Below are positions 5,044 to 60,808 of a DNA stretch of 64,000 nucleotides, piece after piece. Each line of letters begins with the position of its first letter. The stretch's first letter is position 1. The DNA comes from Centroscyllium fabricii (lineage: Eukaryota). A program made the translations under genes and the position numbers. The notes beneath the pieces are model-generated. The model was given only the letters and a program-made list of their open reading frames with translations. It was not told the DNA's origin and searched no databases. The stretch lies in assembly GCA_051313645.2 (NCBI GenBank), contig JBNRSN020000029.1, positions 40,982,001-41,046,000 of the forward strand, read 5' to 3'.

Positions 5044-5070
5044 CTGCATTTTTTATGAGGATCTGTCTCA
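5044..5070 (-). CDS. candidate 27-nt micro-exon (xRQILIKNA)
   Basis: gatttgccttacag|TGAGACAGATCCTCATAAAAAATGCAG|gtaaat; open in phase 1; 3' end resembles exons at 32613 and 43686 (..TGCAG|gtaa). Confidence 0.45.
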
Positions 5071-5189
5071 CTGTAAGGCAAATCAACAACTCAAAACATT
5101 GATACGGTTAAGATTCCGGTTCCGTAAATGGACATGTGTTAATGATGTGATGCCAGATTAATTAATTATATTCGTCGCTGGATCAGCAA

Positions 5190-6270
5190 TAACAAAAATA
5201 ATTTGCATTTATAACACGCCTTTAACGTAGCAAAACGTTATCAAAATTAATGTGACGTCAAACTAAATAACAGGATTTTCGACAGGTGACCAAAAGCTTG
5301 AAAAAAGAGTTAGATTCTAAATACCGTCTTGAAGAATGAAAGAATGCTGGAGGGGAGAGGTTTAGGGAACGAATTGCAGAATTTATGGCCTCGGCAGCGG
5401 AAGGCACGGGCGTCAATGGTGGAGTGTCTAAAATCGGGGGTGCGCAAAAAGCCAACATTGGAGGAGCGCAGATATCTCGCAGTGCTGTAAGGTTGGAGGA
5501 ATTTATCAAACTAAGGAGTTGCGAGTCCATGAGGTACTTGAAAGCAAAACATGAATTTAAAATTGAGGCGTGGCTTAAGTAGGAACCAATAAAAGTCAGC
5601 GAGTGCAGGGATGGTGGGTAAACGGAATTCTGTGCGAGTTTGGATACGGGCAGCAGGGCTTTGAATGAACTTAACTTATGGTGGGTGGAAGACGGTAGGC
5701 CGGCTAGGAGAACATCGGAATCGTCAAATCTAGAGGTAAGAAAGACATGGATGAGGGGTTCAGCAGTAGATGAGATGAGATGAGGCAAGTGGCGGAGTCA
5801 GGCGGTGTATCTGAGGTCGATATAGGCGGACTAAGTGATGGTAGGGACGTGGGTGGGAAACTCATCTCGGGGTCAACAGTGACACTAAAATTGTGAACTG
5901 TCTATTTCAGCCTCAGACAGGGAGAGATTTGATGGCTATGCAATGGAGTTTGCGGCGGGGACCGAAGGCAATGGCTTCAGTCTACCCAACATTCAGCTGG
6001 ATGAAATTTCTCATAATCCAATACTGGATATCAGAGGAATCTGTCAAATTAGCGGCATGGGGAGGGTCAAGAGCGGTAGCGGTGAGGTACAGCTGGGTGT
6101 TGTGAACTTACACGTAAAACCTGACGTTGAGTTTTTTAGATGATGTTCCTGAGGGATAACATGTAGCTGAGAATTCGGAGGGTGCTACGGATAGATCCCA
6201 CGGGGCACTAGAGGTATCGGTGGGACGAACATCTGCAAAGCAGATTAACTGGCCATTGCTCAATAGAACG
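5190..6270 (-). mobile_element. L2-clade LINE 3' fragment
   Basis: ORF 5258-5788 reads PHLISSTAEPLIHVFLTSRFDDSDVLLAGLPSST, matching the L2 C-terminal LIHAFVTSRLDYCNxLLxGLP motif. L2-type tail near 5190-5240. Confidence 0.8.
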
Positions 6271-7099
6271 TAATGAATGTCATGTTTGGATACTAATAGA
6301 AATCTCTGACCCGCAATTAATTGTTCGCCAAACTTCTCAGTTTGCTGCAAGTTAATGCACGGTTTGATTATAGAAGACCATAATCTTATTTAGCGTTGTG
6401 ATGAACTTTAGCTGTGTTTCTGTTTGGAAGTCGGTTTGAAACTCAAAATAATTCAAATCTGCGTTCCATGTCTTTATTATATGAACAGTGGATTTGTCGG
6501 TTGCTACCTTGCTGGATTCTTCTCCGCCACTCTTCATAAAGTTAGGTTAACCTAGAAATCTGCCACCTGAGACAAGGTTGCAACGCCGTCCATCACTGTC
6601 CTTTCCATCATCCACTCATTTTCGTCGCGCAGCGTATCAATTTCTAGGGTTCTGGCTATTTCACATTCATTCCTATTCTCGCTCCACTTTAGAAATCTTC
6701 CCCAGATACGCTGCGCATTTTGCATCCTCCGTGGCTCTAATATATTGCTTGTGCCGCCAGCTCTGCTGCTTGGTTTTAAGACACTATGGGGAAATTTTCA
6801 CCTAACGCACCTGCAAGATAAATTCAGTCGTCAGATGCAACGCTTGTTTTAAGCCGAGCCCAAGTTAATAATAGGTGAAGTGTAAACCGAGCATTCAACA
6901 AGATATCGTGGTTTTGCCGACGAGCAGGTTAGGTTAACATGATCTGCTTGTCACTGCGCTTTCAGACTGTACCCCTTCTTTTGCCTGTGCTGCATGTGTT
7001 TTTTCGATCAATTACATTTTAAATAAACTCTGTTCTCTGTGTCGTGGTTGCGTAGCTTAATTATGTCCGCCTCCTGTGATTAACCTTATGAATGTTGGT

Positions 7100-9287
7100 G
7101 CACAAATAAAGAAATAACTGGAGGACCTGGCTCCAAGTAAATCTCCATTCTCAGAGCCAATCAATTAAGTGCAAAAGTCACTGCCGAAGCGATTGCAACC
7201 ATTTTCAGTCAGAAGTGCAATCACCGTCTCGTCCTGATATCCCCATCTTCACTGAAGTCAGTATTCAGCTAATTCGATTCAATCCATGTAATCTTAAGAA
7301 ACGGCTTAGCCCACTAAATACAGCAATGGCTATTGGCACCGGCAACACCCCAGCTGTAGTGCTGAAAATTCATGCTCCAGAACGAGCCATGACTCTGCCC
7401 AAGCGATTCAAGGACAGTTACAACACTGGCATCTACCCAATAAATTGGAAAAATGACCAGTTATATCCTATCGATAAAACGGAGGACATATCCAATCCGG
7501 AAAATTACTGGCTCATCAGCTGACTCTGATTAATCAGCAAAGTGATGGAAGGTGTCGTCGACAGCACTATCAAGCGATACTTATTCACCAATAACCTGCT
7601 CAAATATGCTCAGTTTGTGTTCCGCCAGGATTAGTCGGCTCAAAAGGGCATGAAAGCATTGGGCCAATCATGAAAAAAGGTGCTGAATGTCAGCGGTTGT
7701 GAGTGAGTGACTATCCTTTACATCAGGGCACCATTCGATCTAGTATGGCATCAGTGAGCCTTGTAAAATTTAAGTCAATGGGAATCAGGAGGAAATCACA
7801 CAATTGTGGCTGTAGTCACAATTTGCACGAAAAGAAGATGGTTGTGGTTATTGGAGCCCAATCATTTCAGCCCCAGTCCATCGCTGCAGGAGTCCTAGGC
7901 TCAACCATCTTCAGCAGCTTGATTAATGAAGTTCCCTCCAACTTATGGTCAGAAGTGGGGATTTTGGCTCATAATTGCACTGTATTCAAGTCCATTCGCA
8001 ACTCCTCAGATAATGGGCCAGAAATGCCAGTATGCCGGTTTGTGTGGGTGCAAGGACCCAGCGGACACCTATAGCACCGCACCATCATCTCACATTTTTT
8101 ACGTCCAGACCTTCCTCTTGGCTCTGCCCCGTTCCTGCAGTCCAGCCACGCTAGGAGCGCAGTATATGCGCTGCCGTCGTTCGTGCGTAGCAGTGATGCC
8201 CCGCCCACAGATACCTAATTTAAATAAAAAACGCCCCCTGCTTCACAGTCGGACCTCTTAGAGCGCAGGGACTTGAGGCCGTTATTAGGACCACGCCCAC
8301 TGCTGCACCCACAGACTCGGCAGTGAGCATCGCTGCCAGAGCAGCTTTTCAATATCGGTAAGTCTTAGCGATTTTTTCTCTTAGTTTTTTAAATTAAGGA
8401 AAGAGTTAAAAAATTCTGATCTTTAAATTTAAAAATAAGCGATTTGGAATAGGTATAGCAATTGAAATTTGGATTTTTAAAATTAAAAAAAAAACTTTAA
8501 CAGCAAAATTTAATGATAACCATCTGGCCACATTACTCCAAAAAACTTAAAAAACTTAAAATTAAAGGTAAAAAAGTCAATTACCTGTGTTTAGGAAGGC
8601 ACTGCTCACACCAACGCACAGGTTACGACTCCTATTTTCTCGTGCAGCCCCAGGCCCAGTTGCCCACAGATTCACGCACAGAATCACACCCAAAAACATC
8701 GGGATTTTTGGGTGCAATTCTTTTGTGTGTTCCATGCTGAGGCCTCTTCTCCCTCAGCATCGGAAAGCTCCGATCCATGGGCATGCCCCGTGCGATCATC
8801 GCACAGGGCATATTGGCCCCCTCCATGCGGGTGCAGCTAGTCCCAGGCACCCGAATTTCTGGCCCAATGAGTCTCCACCCGCCTGCCTCAAGACCTGTCC
8901 AACCTTCAGGCTCGAGTTGCTAAGTGGCAAGTATCATTCATGCCAGAACAGTCCAAGCCAATACCCATCTCCAAAAAGGGTGCATCTGGCCATCTCCCCT
9001 TAATATTTAATGGGATTAGCATCGCCAAATCTCCTACCATCAACTACCTGTGGTTCACCATTGACCAGCAATTTAATTGCTGGAGCCGCATAAATGGTCT
9101 GGCTACAAGATCAGATCAGAGGTTGGGTATTCTGCGTCAACTGTCTCACCTCCTGAATCCCGCAAATCTTTCCACCAACTATAAGGCTTAAGTCAGGAAT
9201 ATGATGGATACTCTATACTTGCGCGGACGATTGTAGCTCCAACAACACTCATGAAGCTCGTCACCATCCTAAAGAAAGCAGCCCGCC
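7100..9287 (+). mobile_element. CR1-group LINE fragment (second family), interrupted by a MITE
   Basis: SYNTGIYPINWK..SNPENYWLIS, GVLGSTIFSSLIN, QRLGILRQLSHLL. The sequence reads through the MITE at 8015-8865. Confidence 0.8.
8015..8865. mobile_element. MITE with 11-bp TIRs and 3-bp AAT target duplication
   Basis: AAT|GGGCCAGAAAT ... ATTTCTGGCCC|AAT (TSD at 8012-8014 and 8866-8868); inserted inside a LINE. Confidence 0.85.
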
Positions 9288-9733
9288 CGGTCTCATTCAC
9301 GGGATGTGGGCGTTGCTGACAAGGTCAGCATTTATTTCCCATCCCTAGTTGCCCTTGGCATGGGCTAGTGAGCTGCCTTCATGAACCGCTGCAGTCCTTG
9401 AGCTGAAGGTACTCACACAGTGCTGTTACATAGTGCGTTTCTGAATTTATATCCAGCAACAATGAAGGAACGGCAATATATATCCAGGTCAGGCTGGTGT
9501 GTGACATGGAGTGGAACTTGCAGGTAGTGGTCTTCTTATGCATCTGCTGCCCTTGTCCTTCTAGTCGTTTGTAGTCGTCGGTTTGTGAGGTGCTGTCGAC
9601 GAAACCTTGGAGAGTTGCTGCAGTTCAACCTATAGATGGCACACACTCCAGCCATGGTGCGACGGTTTTAGAGGGACTGAATGTTTAAGGTGGGTGATGG
9701 GAATGAATCAATGATGCTGATTTATCCCGGATG

Positions 9734-10231
9734 TGTCATAGGTTGGATTCCCCTTTAAATCCTAGGTGGGCTCTTCTCCTTTAAACTGGCCAGCACCTCG
9801 TTAACTACTGCATACACCTGATTGGACAGCCCAAATTAACCAGTAGTATCTTGAGCTGTATATAAGCTCCCACTTTGCACCATGAGTTTGCCAGATCGTT
9901 AAATCTCTTACTGTGATACATGTGTTTTTGTTCCTAGCTCTCTGATCCTGTCTATTCGTGATACTGACCTGCTTACCGGAAATTTCGATTTTATTCTGCT
10001 TGAACTCTGTGTTGGATTTGTCGCTCCCGTGAACGGACTACCTGGAAAATTACTGCTTCTGTATTTGGATTCTCTCCTACCTGAACTCTGTTTTGGACTT
10101 GTTGCCTCCGTGAACTTTCTGCCGTTATTGACTTACTGTTTCTATATCTTCTGACGACTCAGAAATAAAGGAATTTATTTCTACGCTGGTTTTCGGTGTT
10201 TTGCATTTGGGCCCAACCTACAACCGTTACA
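9734..10231 (+). repeat. 5' LTR of sushi-type element
   Basis: Direct repeat of 14754-15251; TATATAA at 9859-9865; AATAAA at about 10164. Confidence 0.95.
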
Positions 10232-10232
10232 G

Positions 10233-10243
10233 AACGATCTGGC
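10233..10243 (+). promoter_or_regulatory. self-priming primer-binding site
   Basis: AACGATCTGGC is the exact reverse complement of GCCAGATCGTT at 9890-9900; no TGG tRNA-type PBS follows the LTR. Confidence 0.85.
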
Positions 10244-10248
10244 CAGAA

Positions 10249-11217
10249 ATGGACCCAGCAGACACACCGAAGCGTCTGGCACAGGTCGAGTGCGCCCTAT
10301 TGCACCAGGGGCAGGCCTTGGGGAAGATATTCACTCAATTGGAGCAGCTAACCGCCGCCTGGATCCAGCGGGCAGCTTCAGATCCGGCAGAGATCCCACC
10401 ACCACCAGTCCCTGCTTCAGCATCGGTATCGGCACCCATGCCTCACCCACAAGGTCTCACACCCGAACCCCGGGTCGGGGTTCCGGAACGTTATGTCGGT
10501 GAACCTGAGCAATGCAATCCCTTCCTCACTAACTGTTCCATTCTGTTTTCTTTGCAGCCCCACACCTTTGCCAATGAGACGGCAAAGGTAGCCTTTGTTA
10601 TTAACCACCTTACAGGAAGAGCTCGTATTTGGGGAACCGCCGAGTGGGAGAGAGAGACTCTGGCTTGCTCTTCCTTCCAAAGGTTCGCCATCGAATTAAG
10701 AAGGATGTTCGGCATGGTGACCTTCGGCTCTGAAGCAGCTCGGGGACTCATGAATCTGAACCAGGGCAATCAGACAGTGGCTGATTACTCCATAGACTTC
10801 CGAATCAGAGCTCGGCAGAGTGATTGGAACTCTGCTGCATTATGTGACGTTTTTCTTCATGGGCTTGCAGAGTACATCAAGGATGAACTGGTCTCCTATG
10901 ATCTCCCTTCAACCCTGGATGAACTAATTAGTCTTGCCACCAGGATCGATCTCCATATCCAGGCGCGTCGACGTGAGAGACGACTGGGAATGACTGGTCG
11001 ACCTCCTCCGAAACGGACTCAAGAGATATTGGTGGCGCCCAGGTCTACTGCAACAGCAGGGTCAGAGTCAGTGGGCCCCGAACCAATGCAGTTGGGTCGC
11101 AGCAGTCTCTCATTGGTGGAGCATAAACGACGCCACCAGGGGAATCTCTGTTTGTACTGCAGCCAGGCCGGCCATTTTGTTTCCCTATGCCCAGCAAAAG
11201 GCCGGACTCACCAGTAG
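10249..11217 (+). CDS. gag: Gag (PEG10/sushi-like capsid with CCHC knuckle)
   Basis: MDPADTPK..., [51 protein letters not shown]; uninterrupted frame. Confidence 0.93.
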
Positions 11218-14200
11218 AGGGAGTCGTACTGGTGAGTCGAACTCCTACAAGACTCTCTCCCAATCCACAACCCTTGTGCCAGGCCAGACTTCTTCTTCCT
11301 AGGGGATCCCAGACTCTCGTCACCTTTATTGACTCTGGAGCGGACGTCAACATTATTGATGAGGATCTGGTCACACAGCTGGAGATTGACCGGGTTCCAT
11401 TGCCACAGCCGGTTCCTGCCAACGCCCTTGATGGCCACCTCCTGGGAACGGTGACACATCAGACCTCACCGGTTCATATGCTTATGTCTGGAAATCATCA
11501 TGAAAGCATTCAATTTCATATCGTGAAATCACCTCGGCTTCCTTTGATTCTGGGACACACTTGGCTTCGCCGCCACAACCCCCACATTGACTGGAACACG
11601 GGAGCTATTTTAGGGTGGAGTTCCTCCTGTCACCAGGTCTGTCTGAAACAGGCTACCGTCATCCGACAGCCATTAACACCTCTTCCCGCTTCAGATCTTT
11701 CGGTGGATCCAACTGAATACCATGATTTTAGGGAGGTATTCAGCAAAGCTAGAGCCACGTCACTACCTCCACATCGCCCCTATGACTGCGTCATTGATCT
11801 GCTGCCAGATTCTTCCCCACCCAAGGGACGTCTGTATTCTTTGTCTGCACCTGAGAGGGAGGCCATGGAAACGTACATCAGTGACTCTATGGCGGCGGGG
11901 ATCATCCGTTCCTCTTCATCACCTGCTGGGGCTGGATTCTTTTTTGTGGGCAAGAAGGATGGGTCGCTGCGACCATGCATCGACTACAGGGGCCTTAATG
12001 ACATTACGGTAAAGAACCGGTATCCTCTTCCTCTCATCTCTTCTGCTTTTGAGCTGTTACAGGGGGCGAACATCTTTACAAAGCTGGATCTTCGCAACGC
12101 CTATCATCTGGTCCGGATACGAGAGGGCGATGAATGGAAGACTGCTTTCAACACACCCTCTGGACATTACGAATACCTCGTAATGCCGTTCGGGTTAACC
12201 AACGCCCCGGCGGTATTCCAAGCCTTGGTTAATGATGTTTTAGGAGACATGCTGAACCGTTTTGTGTTCATGTACATGGACGACATTTTAATCTTTTCTA
12301 AGTCTCGTGAGGAGCATGTTCACCATGTCCAGACTGTCCTACAATGGCTTCTGGAGAACTCACTATTCGTGAAGGCAGAGAAGTGTGAGTTTCACGTCAC
12401 TACCGTTTCTTTCTTGGGGTACATCATTGCGCAGGGGAGCGTGCAGATGGATCCAGAGAAGGTGTCAGCTGTCGCGTCATGGCCTATTCCAGAGACACGT
12501 AAACAGCTACAGCGGTTTCTGGGATTCGCCAATTTCTATCGACGGTTCATTCGCGGCTACAGCACGGTAGCGGCCCCGTTATCGGCTCTTACCTCCTCTA
12601 AGGTGCCGTTCCTGTGGTCCTCTGCAGCGGAGGAGGCTTTTCGCGATCTCAGGTCCCGGTTCACCTCTGCTCCCATTCTCCAGGTGCCTGATCCGGATCA
12701 GCAGTTCGTGGTAGAGGTGGACGCATCAGATGTTGGAGTAGGGGCTATTCTGTCCCAATATTCGGCTTCCAACCAAAAGCTACATCCTTGTGCCTATTTT
12801 TCCAAACGCCTGTCCTCGGCTGAGATGAACTATGACATCGGGACCCGGGAGTTACTGGCGGTCAAAATGGCATTGGAGGAGTGGCGCCATTGGCTAGAGG
12901 GGACCAAGCTGCCGTTCCTAGTATGGACCGACCACAAAAACCTTGAATAGATTCGCATGGCCAAGAGGCTGAATTCACGGCAGGCTAGGTGGTCCCTCTT
13001 TTTTACCCGTTTCAAATTCACCCTCTCCTACAGGCCTGGTTCTCGCAATGTCAAGCCTGATGCTCTGTCCCGCGAGTTCCAGAAGGAGGAGGGTTCCACT
13101 CCTGGATCTGACCTCATCCTTCCAGCTCCTTGTCTTATTGCTGTGGTTACGTGGGAGATCGAGGAGAGGGTGAGATCAGCCGTGGAGGATCAGGCTGGAC
13201 CCAGCGGTTGTCCTCCCGACCGTCTATTCGTTCCCACGAACCTTCGACCTGATGTTCTCCTGTGGGCCCATGCTTCCAAGCTTTCCTGCCATCCGGGGGC
13301 TCAAAGGACCAAGGAGGTTATATTGCGGAGGTTCTGGTGGGATACGCTGGAAGAAGATACCCGGCAGTTTGTCAACGCCTGCTCGGTATGCAACCAACAC
13401 AAGCCGTCTCGTCGGGCTCCCGCTGGTCTCCTGCAACCTCTGCCGATACCACATCGTCCTTGGTCCCACATATCCTTGGACTTTGTTACCGGTCTGCCTC
13501 CATCCAAGGGACTAACCACGATCCTGACTGTGGTGGACCGATTCAGCAAGATGGCCCACTTCATACCTCTGCCTAAACTGCCCTCAGCGAAGGAGACAGC
13601 TGAACTTATGCTGCAACATGTTTTCCGGCTTCATGTGCTTCCTTTAGACGTAGTCTCTGATCGGGGTCCTCAATTTACGTCTGTATTCTGGAGGGAGTTC
13701 TGCAGTCTGATTGGGGCCACAGTCAGTCTGTCGTTGGGTTTTCATCCGCAGTCCAACGGGCAGTCAGAACGTATGAATCAGGAGATGGAGAAGGCGCTCC
13801 GATGCATAGTCTCCCAGAATCCCTCTTCCTGGTCCCAGCTACTCCTATGGGTAGAGTAAGCTCACAACACTCTGTCCAGTTCCGCCACCGGACTCTCTCC
13901 GTTCCAGTGCGCCTATGGATTACAGCCCACATTGTTTCCGGACCTGGAAAGGGAGGTTTCCTGTCCGTCCGTCCAGGCATTTATTCATCGTTGTCGCCGG
14001 ACATGGGAGCAGGCTCGGACTTCATTGCTTCGCTCGGCGGATCGCTACTCGGCTGCTGCCAACCGTCGTCACTCGGAAGCTCCTAAATATCAGGCTGGGC
14101 AGAAGGTGTGGCTCTCCACTAAGGACCTGCCTCTCCAAGTGGAGTCGAAGAAGCTTGCTCCCCGTTTGATCGGGCCCTTCGAGGTCCAGAAGATCATCAA

Positions 14201-14669
14201 CCCAGCTGCTGTGAGACTCAAGCTTCCTCAATCCATGCGGGTTCATCCCACGTTTCATGTTTCACGAATCAAACCAGCACGTGAGAGTGCTTTGGTTCCT
14301 GTTGCCACGCCCCCTCCACCTCCTCGTATGCTCGACGGTGGGTTGGTCTACGCTGTGCGTCGCCTGCTTCGCTCCCGTCGTCGAGGAAGAGGACTTCAGT
14401 ACCTGGTGGACTGGGAGGGGTATGGTCCAGAAGAGAGGTCCTGGGTTCCTGCTCGCCACATAGTGGATCCTCAACTTATAGTCGATTTCCACAAAAGGCA
14501 ACCCGACCAGCCAAGTAGGAGGACTGCGACCCCTGGGGAGTCTGGACAAGGGTCCGGTTCCGTGCAGTCTCTGGAAACCCTGAACGAGGAGGTACAATCT
14601 GCTAATGATGAAGATTCCCTTCATTCTTGTGATGAGATGGACGTGGATGAGGGCCCCGAGGAATGTTAG
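11187..14669 (+). pseudogene. pol: Pol (PR, RT, RNase H, IN, chromodomain), one reading frame with two premature stops
   Basis: FIDSGAD protease; YMDD RT; VEVDASDVG and TDHKNL RNase H; HHCC and DDE integrase; GPF motif; chromodomain [15 protein letters not shown]. ORFs 11187, 12957 and 13932 share one frame, broken by TAG (12948-12950) and TAA (13857-13859). Confidence 0.93.
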
Positions 14670-14753
14670 TCCCTCCTCCGCACCCCTCCGCCCACCCGAT
14701 TCTGGCATTTGGGGTTTGGGACGTCAGGAGTCGGCCCTTGAGGGGGGGGGTTC

Positions 14754-15251
14754 TGTCATAGGTTGGATTCCCCTTTAAATCCTAGGTGGGCTCTTCTCCT
14801 TTAAACTGGCCAGCACCTCGTTAACTACTGCATACACCTGATTGGACAGCCCAAATTAACCAGTAGTATCTTGAGCTGTATATAAGCTCGCACTTTGCAC
14901 CATGAGTTTGCCAGATCGTTAAATCTCTTACTGTGATACATGTGTTTTTGTTCCTAGCTCTCTGATCCTGTCTATTCGTGATACTGACCTGCTTACCGGA
15001 AATTTCGATTCTATTCTGCTTGAACTCTGTGTTGGATTTGTCGCTCCCGTGAACGGACTACCTGGAAAATTACTGCTTCTGTATTTGGATTCTCTCCTAC
15101 CTGAACTCTGTTTTGGACTTGTTGCTTCCGTGAACTTTCTGCCGTTATTGACTTACTGTTTCTATATCTTCTGATGACTCAGAAATAAAGGAATTTATTT
15201 CTACGCTGGTTTTCGGTGTTTTGCATTTGGGCCCAACCTACAACCGTTACA
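14754..15251 (+). repeat. 3' LTR of sushi-type element
   Basis: Direct repeat of 9734-10231, preceded by a poly-G PPT. Confidence 0.95.
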
Positions 15252-15411
15252 GGATGGGGTCGAACGTCATAAATGTTGTTGGAAGTTCACTAATTCAGGC
15301 AGGTGGACAGAATTTCATCACACACCGGACTTGTGCCTTGTAGAACGCGGCGAGGCCTTGGGGATTCATCTGGTGTCTAATTAGCTGCAGCATACCCAGT
15401 CTCTCTCCTGC

Positions 15412-15810
15412 GGCATGGTGGCATAGTGATTAGCACTGTGACATAGTGGTTAGCACTGTTGCCTCACAGCACTGGAGACCCGCATTCAAATCCGGCCTCA
15501 GGTACTATCTGTGGGGAGTTTGCACATTCTCCCTGTGTCTGCATGGGTTTCCTCCGGGTGCTCCGGTTTCCTCCCACAGTCCAAATATGTGCGGGTTAGG
15601 TTGATTGGCCATGATAAATTGACCCTTAGTGTTAGGGGGATTAAATATGTGGGGCTACGGGGATAGGGTGGGATATGTTTCGGTGCAGGCTCGATAGGGA
15701 TATAGGGACAAGGTGCTGGGTTTGGATGATCAGCCATGATCTCATTGATGGCGGAGCAGGCTCAAAGGGCCGAACGGCCTACTCCTGCTTCTATGTTTCT
15801 ATGTTTTTCT
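15412..15810 (+). mobile_element. tRNA-derived SINE (HE1/V-SINE type) with CR1-like tail
   Basis: A/B-box-like head, core GGGTTTCCTCCGGGTGCTCCGGTTTCCTCCCACAGTCCAAA, tail GGCGGAGCAGGCTC..CCTACTCCTGCTTCTATGTTTCTATG shared with the CR1 3' end. Confidence 0.88.
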
Positions 15811-17091: not shown

Positions 17092-17148
17092 ATAGCACGG
17101 CTATCTCATTGCTCAGGACCTCGCAAACATCTGTTAATTGTTTTGACT
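17092..17148 (-). CDS. candidate 57-nt exon (xSKQLTDVCEVLSNEIAVL)
   Basis: tctatcttcag|...GCCGTGCTAT|gtgagt; canonical sites, multiple of 3, open in phase 1. Confidence 0.5.
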
Positions 17149-17707: not shown

Positions 17708-17734
17708 TGCTTTTTTGGAGAAGTTCTTTGCATT
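17708..17734 (-). CDS. candidate 27-nt micro-exon (ECKELLQKS)
   Basis: tattttttttaag|AATGCAAAGAACTTCTCCAAAAAAGCA|gtaagt; paralogous to 40940-40966 (DCKQLLRKS). Confidence 0.6.
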
Positions 17735-43626: not shown

Positions 43627-43685
43627 ATAATTCAAAACTCCACGCCAATGATTCAGCAGAAGCAGAAGTTTACTATGTCATTTAC

Positions 43686-49300: not shown

Positions 49301-50109
49301 AAGTGGAGTTGAGGTCGATGAGCAGCCATGGCCTACTCCTGCTTTTTTTAAACATGGTCTTATAAAATACCGCAGCTTAGCAATTTGTATCTGGCTTCCT
49401 CTTGCGAATGTGTTTTCTTTTATTTTTCACACCACCTGCCCAAATGTTGGAAACGTACACGACAGAACACATGAAAAAGGCACAAGGTTGACATTTCTTT
49501 TTGTCGGTTTTTGGGCATCCTTGTCAGCAGAGCACATTTGTTTGATAGTGGCTAAAAGAGCTGACCAATTATAAGAGCCAGTTCTTATTAACTTATGGCC
49601 AGCCGCACGCCAGTGGCAAAGTAACAACTCCCGAACGGCGCGGCCAGTTTCCCGGCGGGGGAAAATGAAAATCAGGTTGGTGGCGCTCTCTGGAAGCCGG
49701 TAAAGCAGTGAAACTGCATGTCAGTTTATGTTTCTACAACCAAGAGTTGGACTCCTTTCCCTCCTGGTTCCTGTAACATAAATGAATTACTTTCATTTAA
49801 GCTCCTCTTAGGGTGAAACTAAATTGAGTTCTCACTGACGTCAAAGCACCGCGCTTTAGTTACGCTTTAGTTACCTAAATTACCTGTGCACTTGGTTTAG
49901 GTTTTCCTTCCGCCATATCTTCTGAGAACCCCCGTCAAATGGGTATAGCCACTCAAAATGCAGCAACCCGGCAATGTTCAGAGCACTATCGCCACAAGTG
50001 TGTCGAATTGATTTTGGCGACAGTATGCTATTGCACAATTCATTTCGGGGGACAAAGTGGACTAGTCTGAACTTAATATAGTCCAACTGTTTGCAGAACC
50101 TGTGAGAAG

Positions 50110-50565
50110 AACAGTACATAGGAACATAAGAGTGGACGAAGCCCCTTCAGCTGCTCTAAACTTCCGCCATTCAATTAGATCATAACTCCATTTACACACC
50201 GTGTTTCCTTAGCTCGTCATATCATTGCCTAACAAAAATCTTTCAATTTCAGTTTTGACATTTTGCAATTTTCCTAGCCGCAGCGACATTTTTGGAGCGA
50301 GAAGAGCAGATTTCTCCTAGCCATTCTGTGAAGGAGTTCTCCTTGACATCACCAATGAACGGCCTGTCTTGAATTTTATGTTTATGCAATCTTGTTCTGG
50401 ATTTCCCCAACAGAAGGAATAAATTATCTCTCTCTACGCTATCAGCTCCATTGGGTATGTAATACACCGCAGTTAGATCACCTAAAATTCTTACATACTG
50501 AAATGAATAATTAATCTCTTTCAACCAGGTATCATTCTGCTGAATCTCCACTGTACCCGCTCCAA
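50110..50565 (-). mobile_element. old CR1 3' fragment
   Basis: RILGDLTAVY..GKSRTR on the minus strand. Confidence 0.65.
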
Positions 50566-50573
50566 AGCCAAAT

Positions 50574-50780
50574 GGCCGTATATTCCAATCCGTACTGGTG
50601 TATACGCACCGTGTGCACACCCGCAGATACATCGGAAATGCCGATTTCAGGCATGTCAAGCGCATGCGCTGAAGACCGGCAATTCCGATATGTCAAGAAT
50701 GCTCTTGACTGATCGGACACCTACCCGAGAGAAGGGCTTCTGTGGGCTGATGGTTTCGCTCACTGCAGAACCTCGGAGGA
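50574..50780. mobile_element. truncated MITE end
   Basis: aat|GGCCGTATATTCC.. followed by the reverse complement of the 520-746 terminus. Confidence 0.55.
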
Positions 50781-51750
50781 ATCATTATGGTTTCATTTTA
50801 ACTGTTTTAAATGTTATATATTATTGGATCGCACTTTCATAAAACCGTAAACACGGTTAAATCTTTAAAATTAAGCCTATTTTCAATTAAATACTGCGAT
50901 ATTTTATGCTACTGTCATTGAAACGAAACGTGAAGGCCTTCTGCAACTGTTTGCACTTATAAACGTTGTGAACAGGGTCCTTGTAATTGATTTATTTTAT
51001 TAAGATCGATTTCAAATAATGTGTAAATTATTTGGTATTACCATCTATGACTAATAAGAATACATGCATTAATAGGAATAATATCACAGCTTACGCTGCC
51101 ATTACTGAATTTTGTATATTTAATCAATTAATTAAGTGAACAAAAGAGAGCAGCAAATCGCTGAGAGTAGACATGCACAAAATGTTGAAAATATATATTG
51201 TTGGCATAATGATGTGAAGCCTTCAATATGAGAACATTCATAGATGCATTTTGAAGGAGAAGCAATTGAAACACACTAGAAGTAATTGGAGTGATGGTAG
51301 GTGACAATTTCAAAGTTATCTGCGATGCATGAACCAATCTTCTGGGGAACAGTTAGCTAGTGGAGGTGTTGTGGGGAAATAGCTTTGCGTGTGCATGATT
51401 TGGTTAATGATGTTGTCAAGGCTCCAGAACTCGAAATAGAGGCCTGGCATCGTGGGAGTTGTGAACACAGGAAAGAAAATATAAATTGAGGTGGAATGTT
51501 TGGATGATTACTTCAATATTAGCTCACGCTGGACCCACCAATAGTACTAGAGAGGAGAGATACAGAAAACAAAGTAAAACAAAAATGTACTGAAGGATAT
51601 TGAACATTAACTTATGTGTATCTAACGCCCGTGTGCACACATGGACATTTCTGTAGCAACGCCTGACTGATTGACGACACCGGCTGTACCAAATCTAGTT
51701 TTCAAGTCGTGCTGTAGCAATAAATGATATATTTATTTATCTTTACTCAC

Positions 51751-51765
51751 CACTGGCTCCACCTC
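51751..51765 (-). CDS. candidate 15-nt micro-exon (xGGAS)
   Basis: tatttattttaacag|GAGGTGGAGCCAGTG|gtgagt; strong sites, multiple of 3. Confidence 0.45.
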
Positions 51766-52149
51766 CTGTTAAAATAAATAATCATTATCATAGCAACATA
51801 TTCAATAATATCATGGCTGATCTGTACATCAAATCAATTTGTCCGCATTGCTTCCATATCCCTTACTAACAATGATCTACAGAACTCAGAGATAGAAATT
51901 GAATTAGTCCCGAAAACGGGCGGTATATCGTGCCAGCGCTATTTGCCTGCAAATTTCATGCTGCCTGCTCATTATAATGATTGGAGTGCGAATCTCAACG
52001 CCAAATGTGCTGCTGATGGGCTTAGCGCTAAATGGGGGGCCCAATATCTGGTACATTCTACTAGCCGGTAATGCTTGGCCGAGGCTCTTTAAACTACTTA
52101 AAGTGGAGGTCCGTTGTTACAGCAGCACCTCATTGTAAGTCTGTGTGAC

Positions 52150-53430
52150 GCTATGTCTCAGCAACCAAGGAAGTGAGCTCGAAAGTTATTGGAGGCTGCA
52201 CTGCAGGCCTTTGTCAAGGCCGTTAAAGGCAAGCGGGTTGTCCTATTCCTGCAGGTTGGCCGGAGGCCATCAAATGGTACATGCAGAAGGCTATGGGAGG
52301 AGATTGGTAACACCGTCACGGCCACCAACGTGGTCCCAAGGACGTGGATCCATTGCGGCAAAATGTGTAATGACCTCACGCCGCTGGTCAAGGTGAGTGA
52401 AGGCTTCAGCAAATACTATTCCACCAATTGCACCACACGCCTCATACATTGTTCAATGCACCACAACTCATTCACTCATTCAGCAATCTCCATCTATATC
52501 CACTCATACCTCAGAATCGTAGTTTCACTTCATGCTCACAACCTTGACCCTGCTGCAAAACTCAAACCTACATCTTACGCCTTGAAAAAATGGTTAGCTA
52601 TTCATCTATGGCAGGCAACGCACTGAAACCCATTGCACGTCACTATCTGACATGCATCACTTTCTCTTGAAGGCAGAAGTGGCACATAACAGGAGGGTAC
52701 AGCGGAAGACAGGGGCTGGCTAATGCAATATAAAGAATCTCACCAACTTGCAGGTTGCGTCCTTGACATAGTGGGGTGGGGCCTGGGGGTGGGGGGTGGG
52801 CGGTGGTAGTGAGGGAGACCGTGGTCTTGGGAAACTTGAAATCTTTAGCGATAGTGATGTTATGGTCATACTTAAACCTACTTTTCACATCCCATTTCCG
52901 CTGATCACAAAATCTGTTCCCACTACAACAATGACTCCACTCCAAAAGTACTTCATTAGCTGCGAAGTGCTTTGAGACGTCTGCTGGCCGTGGAAGGTGC
53001 TATATAAATGCAAGTCTTTCTTTTCTAACAAGCTGCTGATGGTGTATGGATGGATATCTTGCTTCCCCTACTCCCCTCACCACAACCCGACCCTTGTGTT
53101 TTTGTCGACTCTGATAATCAATAACTGCCAGCAGGTCAGCCTGTCCCTTAAGTTGTGGAGGAGCGTGATGGCATGGAAGAAGAAGACCCGCCATCACTAC
53201 AGCTGACACTCACAGACACCAGTTCAGAAAATGGCATAGCGTAGAATTTAGATGCCAGTATAGAGGTGGAATCTGATCATGATGAGGCAGCGGGCACGAG
53301 TGCGCTGAGCAAGGCCATGTTGAAAAGATAGCATGTTGCCAGCCCTCCCAGGGGCGATTTCATGCATGGGGTCTACTGCACACGACGCTGATGATGACCT
53401 CGATGAGTCGGCCTTCAGAAGAATAGTGCT
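52150..53430 (+). pseudogene. Harbinger-type Myb/SANT (trihelix) gene relic, spliced, with no adjacent transposase
   Basis: ALQAFVKAVKGKRVVLF..RRLWEEIG..PRTWIHCGKMCNDL..VK|gtgagt (52393); next exon after tttctcttgaag reads AEVAHNRRVQRKTG, NAIF1/MSANTD-like. Confidence 0.75.
52900..53025 (+). mobile_element. SINE 3' end with L2-type tail (Deu-SINE-like)
   Basis: CAAAAGTACTTCATT..GCTTTGAGACGT..GGTGCTATATAAATGCAAGTCTTTC. Confidence 0.55.
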
Positions 53431-54164
53431 GCTCCCTTAAAGAACACAGAAACGGTACTGGTTTGGGTAGCGCTTTCCATATGTAAGGGTGAGATATTCC
53501 TTTTGTTGCGTTGAGTGAATCTGAATGTCTGGGTGATCACAGTTTGGAATCTAGTGCGCCAGGGTCACAGGCTGATAGCAATGTTTACTCCATTTTCAAC
53601 TTTTAATTAAATTAATAGAATGCCAAATGGTACCGTCGCGATGACCCATCTTCCCCTCTAGATTGTTCTGTGTTTATTTCTCAAAAGAAGCAAATATTCG
53701 ATTGAAGTCAATGGGAAAGAAGATTTGCTGGAATGAAAAATAGGCGGCCGGTCACTTGCGCATATTATGCGCCCATTGTTGCTGCAGCCTACTGAACTTT
53801 CCATCCAGTAATATGAAGCAGCCAGTAAATTCGGCCAGGCTCTTTTATTGATTTTCTTCTCGTGCAATGTGCACGATACTGCGTGATCAATGCAGCAAGA
53901 ATGAAAACTATCCCATAGCTTCTTCAAAAGTTAAACTTAATTCATTTCAATGTTGGACTGGGCAATTGTCCTTACTGAGCAAGTAAAATAATTTTAACAG
54001 TCAGCGCAGTCATAAAACAAGGATATTGAATTCGCAGCCTAATTGATGCCTCATCTGACCACCACCCGCCCCCCTTCCATTGTGTTTGATGCAATGGAAA
54101 GTCGGGCAACGTGATAAGTGGCCAACCAATAGAAGATCACTCGGTTTATGCCATTGTGGAAAGT

Positions 54165-54865
54165 GGGCCATAATTTGCGGCCCATAAGGTTGTGTACGAG
54201 CAAGTTTCTGGGTCAGGCATGCCTCGGAGCTTGCGATCATGACAGATCATCCACATCCAAGGGAAAAGGGCCTCCATGGGTGGTGAGTTGTTCTTTTTGC
54301 TCAATTTCTGCCCAGTGAATGCCCGTGAAATTCCAACGCACGAGGCTTGGTTTTACCAGCATAAGTCCTTCATAAAACAGAAACAAATAATTCTTAGCAA
54401 TAATTTATACATTTAAAAACATGCAAAATATGATAAGTTTATTTTAGCAGGTTTTAAACATGGAAATGTATTTTACAAACAATTGCATTTTTGTTTTAAA
54501 TACTTAATTCAATGCAATTTAATTAATTTTAAATATGTGATGGATTTTTGTTTCGTTATTTGATGTGAAGGTGTATTTTTGTGGTTATTGCCATTCATAC
54601 TTGTGGCGTTTCCATACATACGGAATCCCCATAAGTCAGAATGAGGATCCCCTTCTGTTATTCGTTGGGCCGGTCCACTTGATCTCAGGGGCGCTCGCGA
54701 ACCGCCTAGGCCACTTTTATACGTGGGCCTCTTCCCGCAGGTACCCAGAGAACCCCAGGATCGGGATTCTCCGTAGATACCGAGAAACCAGGTACGTGGG
54801 CATTTTGTTTACAAATCATCGTAAGCGTTTCCCCTTGGGAAGCCTCCGACCGCAAATTCAGAGCT
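54165..54865. mobile_element. MITE copy
   Basis: GGGCCATAATTTGCGG ... CCGCAAATTCAGAGCT; internal sequence is the reverse complement of the 1-746 and 62877 copies. Confidence 0.6.
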
Positions 54866-55251
54866 AATATGGTCACTCGTGCTCTTTTATATTTTATATG
54901 CTGACAATGAAACATAGCCCAGGCCGCCGAGAAAATGGCAGGCCTCTGCTGAGATGATATATATTGGCCGAGATATTGGATATGGCCACAGAACGATGTT
55001 AAGCTGCATCAGGTCAAAATTATTTAGGTTGCTCGGGAAACTCGTACACAATCTTCATTAACATGATTTTCGTCTTGATATCAGCGCTGACACCGCTCCG
55101 TTTTGGCTTACCTATGAACAACTGAACTAATGTTGGTCCAGTCTAATTTCCAGTCATGATTGGCACAGGCTTTATTCTGTACTTTAAGGGGAGATGCACT
55201 GAAACCACAGCACCACATTGTTAATCCACTTGCTCCTTCACCTGGAAGAAG

Positions 55252-57540
55252 ATGGCATTGGAAGCGCATGACTGAGCCTCAGAGAAAGGGACGGGTCTGC
55301 AGATTCTAACATACAGCTCTTGAGACATTGGTCGCGACCGTGCAGCTGAGCTGTGCTGTCCTGTTCCAGCATACAGGTATCAAAATGTCACAACAGAATC
55401 TTGAAGATTCTGGCTGTAGCTATCTGCCGACCGCCAACACTGGGATCACCAGGTCGGCTATCCCGTGCGAAATGACGTTTACTGTCCCCACACGGGAGGT
55501 CAAGTTGTGTGAAGGTTTCAGCAAATGCCAAACCTGTCTATAAGCACCAGACGCCTCACACAGTGCTCAAAGTATCAGGCCACCAGAACGCACCTTCGAA
55601 TAATCTCCTCCTATCTCCAATCAGTCCTCAGAACCAGAGCTTCACTTCATCCTCACAAACGTGCTACTGTTGCAAAACTCACACTCACATTTCACACGTT
55701 GCACAGAATGAAAGCTATTCAACTATGGCAGGAACATCACCAAACCACATTGCGCCACACTCACTCACACACTTCCCTTTCTCTTGCAGACCTAGGTCGC
55801 GTATAACAGGAGAGAACAGTGGCATACAGGCCAGATGAGGAGTGTGGCGGGGGGAGCTGCTATCCAGGACCTCACTTACCTGGAGGAATGATTGCTGGAG
55901 ATAATGGAGTGCCAGATCTTGGATGCTGTGGCAATCGGCGAGGTTGACGCGCCTGGGGACCAGTCAATGCACGTTTCTAATCCTTCTTGTCACCTCCACG
56001 TTCCTGCTCATCCCACGATCTCTTGGTACTTCCAATCTGCTGATGTTGTGGGCATGCATATATTGCGTTCACCCTCCCCTCACCATAATCCTGTTCTTGG
56101 GACTAGGGACAGGGCCACTGGCAAGGCTTGGAAGCTAAGCAGAGTCAGGCCTGGTTAGTTCTTGGATGGGAGACTACCAGGTGCAGAAGGTCACGAAAGG
56201 AGCCTCGGGGAGGGGCGGTTGGCTGAAGATTGTTGGAATGATGGAAAGATGGAATGGCGGCACGCACAGACGCAGCGGCTTTGCTGGACTCTTGGGAGCT
56301 TGCAAGATCACATTTCGTTGTTCATGTACGTGTACATTATATAATGACAATAAAGTTGAATTATTATTATTATTAATAATCTGTTCTCTTGCGCATATCG
56401 GATTTCAGCTAAACAAAACAAAGCACCCGATAAACCTGTCCCCGAGGCGATGCAGGAGAGTGAGGGGTCAGGGGAAGACAAAGATGAAGAAGACACAGCC
56501 TTAACCTGTCTCCTGCAGCTCAGAAGCGGGCGCTGCGCATACATTAGAGGCTGAAAGAGAAATGGGATCTGCACAGATTGAGGCACCGTGCATCAAGTGG
56601 GCTGCAGCAAGGACAGAGGGAAAGGGTAGCTCGTAGCCAGCTTGCCGAGGCACGAGTTCGTGCATGGGTTCGGCTGCAAAGTACTGAGAAGGGGATCTAG
56701 ATGAGGCAGCCTTCAGCAGAAGGGTGATGGACATGCACACCGAACTACTAGGTGCAATGGCAGGCCTGCCACTGAGCCTCTTGACTATATCAAGGAGCAT
56801 GGAGGAGTCGCACTCCAACAATACATGGGGCTTTGCACAGAGCTCGGTGCTCAGGATTTCCAACCTGGAAATGATGGAAATTCCCGAAGATACTGTGTTG
56901 AACCAGACGTGACGCTGTGTAATGGGTGATGTTTTGGCTGCCATTGCAGCACAGTCGGAAACAACCCAATGTCTTAGTAAAGCAGCGTAAATGAAGAACA
57001 CTCTCTGGAAGACTCAACTTGCTCAGACTCAAGATCAGACTGCTCTCAAGTAACCTCAGCTTGCTGCTGCGCAAGGTCAGACAGAAGCTTTCGTGTCGGG
57101 GTTTACCTGTGTCGCCCAGAGCTTACGTGGTGTCGTTGCAGTCGAGCAAAATGTGATCCAACCGATTTCTAAGAATTCTGTGGCGGTACTCCGGGTAATG
57201 GAAATTGGTCAGTGGAACAGGGGCCTGCTGTCCTCTCTCAGGATGAGAGCATTCCTCTTCCCATTATTGCCACCACAACATTGCTCTTGCCACTGCCTGT
57301 CATCCAGCCAGCCCAGACTCCCACCGTCCATGCCGTGATATACCAGTCTACAGTTGGACTTTCTAGGGATAGAGCGGCTGAAGGCCGTCCTGCAAGGCAA
57401 TATGAAGTCTCCCCATGGAATTTCAGCAGCCTTCTACCAGCCATGCTACAGCACAGGGCCAACACTTCGTTGGAGCACTAGATCACAAAAGGACACCCTG
57501 ACTACAGGCACTAAGGGATTGCACACATATGATATGAAAT
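55252..57540 (+). pseudogene. Harbinger Myb/SANT-like gene relic
   Basis: RF..TALETLVATVQLSCAVLF exon; exon after ttctcttgcag (about 55789) reads VAYNRREQ..TG; later MDMHTELLGAMAGLP..ISRSMEES. Homologous to the 52150 relic. Confidence 0.65.
56127..56190 (+). pseudogene. 5S rRNA-derived fragment (internal control region)
   Basis: CTTGGAAGCTAAGCAGAGTCAGGCCTGGTTAGTTCTTGGATGGGAGAC versus vertebrate 5S CTCGGAAGCTAAGCAGGGTCGGGCCTGGTTAGTACTTGGATGGGAGAC; 5' part of 5S absent. Confidence 0.85.
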
Positions 57541-57673
57541 AATTGATTTTGCATACAAATATTAATTTTGTTTCGTGGCTTACATTTCAGCTTTGTGCCC
57601 CGCAGGACGGGTTGATACTCTCTGACAGAGAGATGATTAGGATGTTGGGAGCAACGGGGTTCTTGGGTTTCAT

Positions 57674-58824
57674 TCATTGGAATCGGAGTCTAAAGCGGCG
57701 TTCACGGAGAGCCTGTCCAGAGGGGGGTTTGGCTGCCTGTCTTACCCTTTCTTCCTTGTCCTATTCCTCTTCATCCTCCTCCTCTCCTTCGATCTCCTCC
57801 TGACGTGATCCCGTGAACCTTGGTGGCAAAGGCTGTGCAATCATGATGGCCAAGCTGTGTAAGATGCAGCAGACTACAAGAACATTTGACACCCGCTCCA
57901 CCGAGTACTGGAGCTCACCGGCAGAGCGGTCAAGGCAGATGAACAATTGCATCAGCCACCGCATGGTCTGTTCTAGGTGAATTCTGGTGATGATGGCTCT
58001 CATTATATAAGTGCTGGACACGAGTGGTGGGGGGTTGCTGAGTGGAGTACTTAGCCAGTGAATATGGGATAGCCCTGTTTTCCGAGCAACCAACCTCGAG
58101 TTGTTTTTGGTGGCTGGATGATTTTTGGCTGGCACACGGCACTGAAGCAGGGTGTAGGCTTCATGACTCCTGCCAGGATAGCAGGCGATGACCAGCAGGA
58201 ACCGGTGGGCGTGGTCGCACATAAGCTGCACAATAATTGATTGATAGACTTTGCAGATACGGAAGTTCTCAGGATTGTTATGCAGCTTCTGAAAAACATC
58301 GTGGGCGCAATTAATGATGCCCAGCCCGATGTGAAATTCTGCTATCCTGCCAAAGTCACATGTTCGCTCCTCTTGCTTCTGTCTGCTCAGAGAACAAAAT
58401 GTTTTGCCTTCTCCTGTGTAGAGAGAGCCGCTGTCCTCACTGATGCAGCGATGGATGGTGAACTGGGAAATATTAGCATGCATCCTGCGGCAGACTGGTA
58501 GGATCCACTGGTGAAGAAATTAATTTCCACAGTGTCCTTAACTATCTTTGGTCCTGTTCTGTTCGCCCTGCTCTTGGGCTGCAGGTCTGGTTGCAGCACA
58601 TAGCAGTTCTGTGTCCACCTTCTGGCTGAAGTGGAACCACCAAATTCACTGGTTTTCTTTCAAATGGATATAAGACAAGTGCTCTCGGAAACCCGTAACT
58701 GTGTATGGCCTCGTTATAGCAATCCTCCTCCATCCTCTGCACGTATTTTCTTGTCTTCTTCACTACCTTAACTTCCTCTCCCGAAGGTAACCAAGCACGA
58801 AGGGAAAGCAAGTATAGCCCCCAT
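57674..58824 (-). pseudogene. Harbinger (HARBI1-like) DDE transposase relic
   Basis: FFTSGSYQ..ISQFTIHRCI, GIINCAH (GAIDCTH), YQSIIVQLMCD, YPGRSHEAY (PGSxHD), WLLGKQGYP (LLGDxGY), EQTMRWLMQLFICLDRSAGELQYS, CCILHSLA. Frameshifted; catalytic Asp residues changed. Confidence 0.9.
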
Positions 58825-58925
58825 GACTGTGAGCAAGGTTTTTGATCAGAAGCCTTAAAATAACAAAGGCGTTCTCCACTTGCAACAACACTCCCACATA
58901 CCCAAGAAACTTGAAAAAAGTTAAT

Positions 58926-59672
58926 GGCCCACAAATTAGGTTGCCAACGCATGATTACCCGCTGAATACTCATGCGTAGACCCAAGGAAAGTGCCGGTTT
59001 TGTACATGCACTGCGTATGCGTGGGAAACGGGAACTTCCGTTCCCCTAAAAGAAGGCATTCAGAGCTGGAACGCTTGCACGGTAGAGGCAGTGTCTGCAC
59101 ATCGAGCTTACATTTGTTTACAGGTTTTTCTGGGACGGTAAGCCTGCAGAAGTTACACAAGTAAAAAGCAGTCCTATGGCCTGCTTTTAACAAGGTAAGT
59201 TTTGAATTCATTTTAATTAAAGCATTTTCCACAGGTTTATTATGTCTAAATTTATTAAGGAAAGGTAACTTCATTTTTAGCTCCGTTAGAAAAATTAATT
59301 AGTTTTTTCAAGGATTAAAATTTTTCTTTAAATATTTATTTCATGTAATTTAGAGTTACTGTAAAGTTGCGATTTTTAAAATGTATTTGAAGTGTTTTGG
59401 GGCTTATAGAATTTCGTATTTTGACAGCTGTTCCTGTCAATTTTATGAATCGGCACTTCCCTGCTACCATTGCCTCTCCATGGCCCACGTGATCCCAGGG
59501 GAACGCATGGAACTAACTGCGCCGCTGGGATACGCAAGCACTGCGTGCCGGCAGTTGGACAATGCCCCAAATCGCAATCCCACACGGGCCCAATGCACAA
59601 CGGCCGATGCGCTAGGTACGTGCAGGTCGGATGCTTGTACCTGCGGGAATCCTCCGACCGAAATTCTGGGCC
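58926..59672. mobile_element. MITE with AAT target duplication, inserted in the Harbinger element
   Basis: AAT|GGCCCACAAATTAGG ... CCGAAATTCTGGGCC|AAT. Confidence 0.78.
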
Positions 59673-60414
59673 AATATAACTGCTGAAGTTGCAGAAAGTT
59701 GCACAGAGCCAGTCAAATTACACACCCATGTCATGTGCAAGTTGTTGCTGATGATCGCACTTTTAACAGCTGCTGGAGCTTCCTTCCCTTTTGCCAATGC
59801 TTACTCAGCTCGTCACTCTTAAGGCAAGCCAGTAAGTGGAGCGGTGAAGTCGCACATCACTGACGTCGTCATGTGGATTATCTCCATAACTGTGGTGAGC
59901 GCTAACTTAGGCATCGCAGCGGCTATCTGAAAATGACGGCCACCGTGGGACCCGCCTGCAGCGGGCGGAAGTATCCCTGCTGCCATCTCTCCCTGAATCT
60001 GGTTGTAATGGTGGAGCTAAACCCCCAAATTTCTGAAAGCACTTGTTCACTGTGGGACAGCAGAGTATATTACAGTAAGAGGAGGAGAGAGCCAACACAA
60101 ATTCGAATTGGTTCTGTCTCACACCCTTCTTCGACTTCCGGTCTATTAGTAATAAAATTAAGAAAAGAGTGTAAAATACTGAAACTGAAGACACTAAGGC
60201 CTAGAAATTCCACGCGGGCGGTGGCGCACAATGTGCGACATTGTATCTGCCACGTGTTATCGTCAGCGATTGATATTAAGTTGCATTGCACTTCAATGTG
60301 TATGGTCGCAGTTGATGTAGTTCTGCGGCCACCTCCAAAGTGATCAAAACAAGGTACACAGTGAAATGTCGAATGTTTCAGAAATTATTTTTAAGAGAAA
60401 TATTTTAGTCTTAC

Positions 60415-60438
60415 CTGACGTCGATGTTGACTTCAGTT
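60415..60438 (-). CDS. candidate 24-nt micro-exon (ELKSTSTS)
   Basis: tgttcattttcag|AACTGAAGTCAACATCGACGTCAG|gtaaga; strong sites, open in phase 1. Confidence 0.5.
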
Positions 60439-60766
60439 CTGAAAATGAACATTGGGCTGATTTGTTTTGGTTATTTCGGTAGACCTTGTCATTTTGCGCT
60501 CGGTAGTGATACCGAGTCGACACCCACGTTATCGCTTTTCGGACTTTTCTTTCCATTGCTTTCCATTGAGAGCAATGAAAATATAAATCGGGAGAGATAT
60601 ATTCGCTATGATAAATGGCTGTACATTTTATTTCTCAACAAACCACATTTGCAAATAATACGTATTTAAAACAGCACTTAAAAAAAATAACAATATTGAT
60701 AAAGATAATAGCCCTGAATTCATAATTGAAATTATGTCACAATTTCAGAATAAGCCATTATATCAC

Positions 60767-60808
60767 CTTTCAGATTGACCGCATGTTCAGAATTTCCGCA
60801 ATAGTGAT
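60767..60808 (-). CDS. candidate 42-nt exon (xHYCGNSEHAVNLK)
   Basis: aatttaacag|ATCAC..CTGAAAG|gtgata; multiple of 3, open in phase 1; weaker sites. Confidence 0.3.

Follow-up and report, generated by a model that had tools for sequence, protein, structure and literature searches.

A predicted coiled-coil rod gene built from phase-1 micro-exons, with a broken B30.2 exon, upstream of nurim in the shark Centroscyllium fabricii

The enterophilins of mammals combine soluble heptad repeats with a B30.2 domain in a cytoplasmic leucine-zipper rod design. One of them, enterophilin-1, interacts with SNX1 (PMC13749957). The chicken BG genes, as described in two papers (PMC4046983, PMC8813856), lie in tandem on the same strand in linkage with the major histocompatibility complex (MHC), carrying, behind an IgV domain and a membrane segment, 13-36 exons of 21 (sometimes 24) nucleotides (nt) that specify a long heptad tail subject to alternative splicing; a soluble 'zipper protein' belongs to the same system. 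Here we compare these genes, and also the butyrophilins and the TRIM proteins that end in B30.2, with a locus in the shark Centroscyllium fabricii. The stretch analysed (hereafter the window) comprises 64,000 nt at positions 40982001-41046000 of contig JBNRSN020000029.1 in the 7.2-Gb genome; window-relative coordinates become contig positions upon addition of 40982000. We read the window, with moderate confidence, as the middle of a gene of approximately 245 kb for a predicted cytoplasmic coiled-coil rod of approximately 440 residues that has lost its B30.2 domain and is likely a rod-only partner of B30.2-bearing paralogs.

An initial annotation had proposed ten AG/GT-bounded segments on the minus strand as phase-1 exons of a hidden gene. 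All ten were recovered where they had been placed, open in phase 1 and with the translations claimed; their positions were right, but 17092 and 17708 had been transposed in the list, and the segments said to lie in unique sequence sit in unique or two-copy DNA. Eight behave as real exons with a paralogous copy approximately 0.5 Mb downstream that keeps AG and GT. Seven of these retain both sites at unchanged length: 60415..60438 (24 nt), 43686..43721 (36 nt) and the 27-nt exons 40940..40966 (which also has a match in the mapping of a catshark protein), 32613..32639, 23450..23476, 17708..17734 and 5044..5070. The eighth, a Gly-rich linker of 15 nt with strong sites at 51751..51765, has an 18-nt counterpart in which a 3-nt insertion leaves AG and GT in place. 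Two further minus-strand, phase-1 micro-exons of 24 nt, 31596..31619 and 24861..24884, were absent from the earlier list and likewise keep AG and GT in the paralog. The remaining two segments are probably not exons. The 57-nt segment 17092..17148 has lost AG, GT and frame in the paralogous copy, which contains a stop codon; it is missing from the models of related species, its insertion lowers the alignment score in all four alignments to them, and the direct join of 17708 to 5044 recreates a Met that the models of shark and ray have at this point. The 42-nt segment 60767..60808 has an acceptor score of 0.0, and its splice sites show no conservation. The original list had allowed for some false and some overlooked exons; by the paralog test two segments fall and two exons are added. 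Comparison with the plus strand and with shuffled sequence, which had been suggested as a check, gave for the lengths 24, 27 and 36 nt nine minus-strand candidates in the window, no plus-strand candidate and a mean of 1.68 (maximum 5) in 100 local shuffles. Since the lengths and thresholds were picked after the exons had been viewed, this count weighs less than the paralog test and the regional scan described below; the splice-site matrices were approximate.

The regional scan covered the window and 2.0 Mb around it, 2.06 Mb in total. The minus strand has 256 non-overlapping candidates of 24, 27 or 36 nt and the plus strand 27, and because of this imbalance about 230 of the former are likely to be true micro-exons; the minus-strand excess spans +1229 kb to -702 kb. 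When no stop filter is applied, 262 of 275 minus-strand candidates (95%) are open in phase 1, compared with 115 and 139 in the other phases, and the plus strand has no phase bias (28, 27 and 26 of 44 open in the three phases). Exon lengths peak at 27, 36 and 24 nt, with 21 nt at background level. The encoded peptides are high in Lys, Glu and Leu and almost free of Pro and aromatic residues, and the 36-nt exons place Leu, Ile, Val or Met at position 1 in 74%, at position 4 in 81% and at position 8 in 69% of cases. A 27-nt and a 36-nt exon together amount to three heptads, and the micro-exon peptides spell a heptad coiled coil.

A collinear duplication, with 65-80% identity between its copies, links the interval from +107 to -110 kb to that from -327 to -600 kb and allows the candidates to be followed from one copy to the other. 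Among the candidates of 24, 27 or 36 nt, 33 of 45 could be aligned and 30 of the 33 retain AG, GT and frame in the copy, compared with 17/84 other minus-strand candidates and 9/66 plus-strand candidates in the same test; in the reverse direction the figure is 28 of 31 aligned (of 53), compared with 11/65 controls. Across 30 exon pairs (249 codons) the splice sites are 92-94% identical and the introns 74%, amino-acid identity is 61%, and no stop is present where 7.6 would be expected. The ratio of nonsynonymous to synonymous substitution (dN/dS) in these pairs is 0.61 (bootstrap 0.42-0.89), in keeping with the earlier proposal that symmetric phase-1 micro-exons form part of a large gene that evolves fast.

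The entire window, 1..64000, falls within one minus-strand gene of about 245 kb, which likely exists as such a unit with eight of the ten segments among its exons. Two conserved exons, of 62/63 nt and 131/132 nt, precede both duplicated units. In the window's gene the former, likely untranslated, lies at contig 41102599-41102660 on the minus strand, and the latter is a minus-strand ATG exon of 39 codons plus 1 nt with a phase-1 donor at contig 41099669-41099799 (window-relative 117799-117669). Its ATG and both of its splice sites are intact, an in-frame stop lies three codons before the ATG, and the 1-nt length difference between the paralogs, which share 51% amino-acid identity here, is located before the ATG. 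The resulting head of 39 residues is acidic and hydrophilic, has no hydrophobic stretch, signal peptide or membrane segment, and joins the array in phase 1. It matches only its paralog in a genome search and occurs in none of the relatives' proteins compared. Two tyrosines in this head are kept in both paralogs and might, speculatively, be phosphorylation sites.

About 30 more micro-exons of the gene lie outside the window, and its last exon is a broken B30.2 exon on the minus strand at contig 40855520-40856029 (-126 kb). A curated chain joins the ATG exon, 40 micro-exons of 15-36 nt and this last exon across 244 kb. Its frame stays open for 438 codons, until a stop that follows 30 residues of the last exon, and 10 of the 780 possible skip junctions within it yield a stop. 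An automatically built chain was discarded: it stops at codon 241, probably through false or alternative exons, whereas the curated chain is open. In the broken exon a stop comes early and two indels shift the frame; its acceptor is still strong (11.9), and the exon is 70% identical to the intact one. Because identity is flat across the codon positions (72/72/67%), this B30.2 has likely long been decaying while the micro-exons before it were kept. As the premature stop is in the last exon, the message would be expected to escape nonsense-mediated decay.

The flanks, whose inspection for B30.2 exons had been proposed, do contain one downstream, where the end of the array matches SPRY (PF00622, E 4.6e-9). 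Three B30.2 exons occur within the 2.06 Mb, namely the broken one and two intact ones at -711 kb and +1063 kb, and no fourth remnant was found there. The exon at -711 kb terminates gene B (minus strand; ATG exon at contig 40837106-40837237, -144.8 kb; B30.2 exon at contig 40270088-40270605), which consists of a head, about 100 exons and B30.2. The one at +1063 kb (contig 42045245-42045760, minus strand) terminates gene C, which has about 40 exons before its B30.2; in the mapping of modules to gene C, 4 of 10 runs exceed the best shuffled score. An exon at +155183 ends in A with a GTAAGT donor, resembling the exons that precede intact B30.2 exons, and is followed by no B30.2 remnant; possibly it marks another gene end whose last exon was lost. 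On a different contig (C1233:1629917-1630423) a B30.2 exon with 37% identity (E 1.1e-34) stands nearer to this family than most B30.2 matches do and is a possible fourth family member.

Conservation in related sharks and rays, which had been named as a test of the gene, was confirmed both by proteome matches and by exon mapping. The closest long protein is catshark XP_038671249.1 (945 residues), 56% identical in B30.2, with SPRY as the sole family above cut-off; it maps collinearly onto the exons of gene B, some of them nearly identical. Both this protein and fragments from ray and catshark align to the chain built for the window's gene. Relatives were found in Scyliorhinus, Narcine, Hemiscyllium, Chiloscyllium, Cetorhinus, Leucoraja and Callorhinchus under RefSeq names such as A33-like, TRIM39-like, golgin-like and butyrophilin-like. 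They include fragments from the catshark (XP_038671249.1, XP_038671246.1, XP_038672306-10), the ray (XP_069775384-90, XP_069775425.1) and the chimaera (XP_042191566-8) in addition to XP_078422387.1 and XP_043533988-9; these share the exon motifs and the B30.2 clade, but are partial automatic models with unrelated names. The family is real and partly annotated already, under wrong names. In the literature searched, from which subscription journals were mostly absent, no description of a rod-B30.2 family was found. In an unrooted tree of 61 B30.2 domains, chosen from search matches and cut with a family profile, the relatives form one clade (100/100) apart from the sampled butyrophilins, TRIMs and teleost coiled-coil-B30.2 proteins. 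The teleost proteins (for example XP_057189581.1, XP_062260885.1 and XP_017276390.1), which as a group go under names such as myosin-like or GRIP-like, also have a long coiled coil ending in B30.2 and no RING or Ig among the Pfam families listed, but their B30.2 domains fall in a different clade (100/98) and the resemblance is likely convergent. Potential for exon skipping had been foreseen for the window's gene, and RefSeq isoforms of the relatives display it: all seven pairs compared, from ray, catshark, chimaera and bamboo shark, differ by a single clean block of 6, 9, 16 or 18 residues, as micro-exon skipping predicts. A single-sequence structural model of XP_038671249.1 consists of long helices and short linkers. 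Searches for longer homologues returned two matches in one case and none in another.

How far the locus resembles the described systems can now be stated. With butyrophilins it shares heptads from small exons followed by a terminal B30.2 (which genes B and C have intact and the window's gene has in broken form), linkage to the MHC and BTN3A1 as the best PDB match of its B30.2 (E 2.8e-23); it differs in that IgV, IgC2 and a membrane segment were not found here, that 40-100 exons stand in place of a few heptads, and that its B30.2 forms a separate clade. With chicken BG the locus has in common an MHC-linked tandem of same-strand genes, a long heptad tail of tiny exons and, in the predicted product of the window's gene, the lack of B30.2; here, however, the exons are mostly of 27 or 36 nt and spread over hundreds of kb, the head is short and soluble, and paralogs carry B30.2. 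The TRIM-B30.2 proteins, from which the names 'zinc-binding protein A33-like', 'TRIM39-like' and 'TRIM58' in RefSeq derive, share a cytoplasmic coiled coil (with helices predicted here) and a C-terminal B30.2, but RING, B-box and TRIM_CC were not found in the scanned members of the rod-B30.2 family. The enterophilins are mammalian, and the likeness to them is one of overall design, set beside the locus by description. Judged by its domains, the gene family appears to be neither butyrophilin, BG nor TRIM, yet it is built like the cytoplasmic half of a butyrophilin or BG protein, or like a TRIM protein minus RING and B-box.

An IgV and transmembrane front end had been anticipated, together with likeness to triadin, TSBP1 and butyrophilin/BG-type tails. 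Neither triadin nor TSBP1 appeared among the named matches. The likeness to butyrophilin/BG tails stands as regards heptad micro-exons, B30.2 and MHC linkage and fails as regards Ig and membrane segments, of which none was found. Among 292 of 381 low-copy minus-strand open reading frames taken from four upstream gaps, Pfam detected no Ig, RING or B-box and returned transposon-type or sub-threshold families only; a motif scan for Ig, RING, B-box and membrane motifs gave no credible match, and no membrane-type frame was seen on the strand of the gene across 1.66 Mb. None of 32 genome matches to the butyrophilin IgC family (PF22705) fell on the window's contig, and butyrophilin queries against the 2.06 Mb matched B30.2 only, among the 80 matches listed. 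RING and B-box were likewise absent from the family members scanned, and TRIM_CC was without a match. Signal-peptide-like exons running from ATG to GT were rejected, since in most of them T-rich acceptor tracts are simply read through; several RefSeq models begin with hydrophobic residues that look like translated acceptor tracts of the same kind and not like signal peptides. We consider it highly improbable that the array encodes a cytoplasmic tail belonging to a membrane receptor of butyrophilin/BG type, with Ig and transmembrane exons further upstream. Its heptad micro-exons, B30.2 and MHC linkage are those of butyrophilins and BG, BTN3A1 is the best solved-structure match, and room is left at the 5' end of gene C and in the DNA past +1264 kb; yet the window's gene is headed by an ATG exon with an in-frame stop just before it, the upstream frames scanned and the window's contig yielded no Ig or IgC match, and the B30.2 clade stands apart from the sampled butyrophilins.

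The objection that the segments are chance AG/GT pairs within AT-rich intron DNA has next to no probability. It holds for 17092 and 60767, and the plus-strand control implies approximately 10% false calls overall, but the excess in strand, length and phase, the retention of sites in the paralog and the matches to shark and ray proteins contradict it, and on these grounds it is already refuted for eight of the ten segments. Improbable, too, is that an old tandem duplication left the window's gene behind as a pseudogene: the broken B30.2 exon with its almost neutral divergence, the high dN/dS and the seeming loss of the penultimate exon would all suit decay, whereas paralogous candidates retain AG, GT and an open frame here far more often than controls do, and the start exon has kept its ATG and its two splice sites. 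An unlikely reading, to which we nevertheless give some weight, takes the arrays from +990 to -712 kb as a single giant transcription unit with internal promoters. Splicing would then carry the exons of the window beyond the broken B30.2 and beyond the second ATG exon to those of gene B, giving a rod of approximately 2,000 residues that ends in an intact B30.2. Every array lies on one strand and reads in phase 1, the array between +990 and +155 kb yielded no terminal exon, catshark same-strand models run over approximately 4 Mb here, and the kept exons beside a decayed B30.2 would be explained; on the other hand, the broken exon retains its strong acceptor, each unit has its own conserved ATG exon and upstream exon, and a family member of at least 1655 residues was not found, which is weak evidence.

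The separate rod-only gene that we favour would work as follows. The exons of the window would be transcribed and spliced, the segmented rod would dimerise through its heptads, and its length would be tuned by the skipping of symmetric exons. B30.2 heads, where present, may bind ligand by analogy with TRIM and butyrophilin proteins, and the B30.2-less product may pair or compete with the full-length paralogs or, alternatively, bind the cytoskeleton in the manner of the chicken BG 'zipper' tail. Several observations weigh against this account. Purifying selection on residues is weak, several exons in the window have changed more between the paralogs than the introns beside them (identity 52-62% compared with 69-78%), and the penultimate exon seen before intact B30.2 exons was not found in the window's gene. 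For the array from +990 to +155 kb neither a first nor a last exon was identified, and gene boundaries may differ from those given. The relatives' models are automatic and several of their ends resemble intron read-through; the structural model of XP_038671249.1 has a mean predicted local distance difference test (pLDDT) score of 55, with B30.2 not folded. The exon junctions are predicted from sequence, and the function of the rod proteins is proposed by analogy only. Four sequencing runs gave even intron coverage and no splice joints, as DNA would, and have no bearing on expression.

The position of the locus links it to the MHC. Of the 30 MHC class I matches, 29 fall on the window's contig, at 0.7-21 Mb, where B30.2 exons beyond those described are also numerous; a search with MHC class II beta matched nowhere in the genome and is uninformative on position. 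Nurim lies approximately 60-70 kb past gene B on the same strand (exon at contig 40198297-40198695). In the examined parts of a published comparison and its supplement (PMC10751288), the catshark relative LOC119975528 sits on the MHC chromosome in a run of large same-strand models at 22.2-26.2 Mb that directly precedes NRM, RPS5, DHX16, POLR1H, VARS2, PPP1R11, GTF2H4 and GNL1. On the same side of NRM, those parts show a gene-free stretch for white shark (1.83 Mb) and another for sawfish (0.96 Mb), the largest gaps there, and name no B30.2 fragment within them either; a gap of this kind is absent in reedfish, and the words 'TRIM' and 'butyrophilin' have no occurrence in the main text as available (PMC10751288). 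By synteny, the blanks in white shark and sawfish would hold the rod-B30.2 family.

Much of the remaining sequence is repetitive, and the long open frames in and around the window are mostly retroelement remains. The window contains a long terminal repeat (LTR) retrotransposon-like element at 9729-15048 with 300-nt terminal repeats 99% identical and plus-strand pol-like frames, a second LTR-type element on the minus strand at 18701-22869 with 283-nt terminal repeats 93% identical and frames whose kin recur in the region, and a degenerate tandem array with a unit of approximately 91 nt at 26190-26760. A tandem duplication of approximately 1.2 kb and 99% identity at 41333-43626 ends approximately 60 nt from the donor of exon 43686, and its element is present elsewhere in the region. 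Outside the window, approximately 255 kb of mostly repeats at +621 to +876 kb, nearly without micro-exons, divide the upstream array; an AT-rich repeat (27-29% GC) lies at +601 to +613 kb, and a tandem duplication at -276 to -300 kb with a 12.3-kb offset and approximately 100% identity is either very recent or an assembly artefact.

We propose, tentatively and with considerable doubt, that a soluble rod-B30.2 family, no younger than the divergence of sharks and chimaeras, occupies an unannotated part of the elasmobranch MHC on the scale of a megabase, comes in pairs with and without B30.2 whose rod length is tuned by splicing, and keeps as a free-standing gene the 'heptad micro-exons plus B30.2' half that butyrophilins and BG carry behind Ig domains. 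Shark MHC regions serve the reconstruction of the ancestral MHC, and in the published gene lists the stretch upstream of nurim is blank in white shark and sawfish and fragmented in catshark. A cluster of approximately 230 micro-exons would explain this blank and would add an overlooked B30.2 family to a region that in other vertebrates contains TRIM and BG/butyrophilin genes; it also carries the practical warning that micro-exon genes of such build escape annotation. For chicken BG, the question has been raised whether B30.2-less tails work with separate B30.2 domains (PMC4046983, PMC8813856). Here the B30.2-less and the B30.2-bearing form lie adjacent to one another, which bears on that question.

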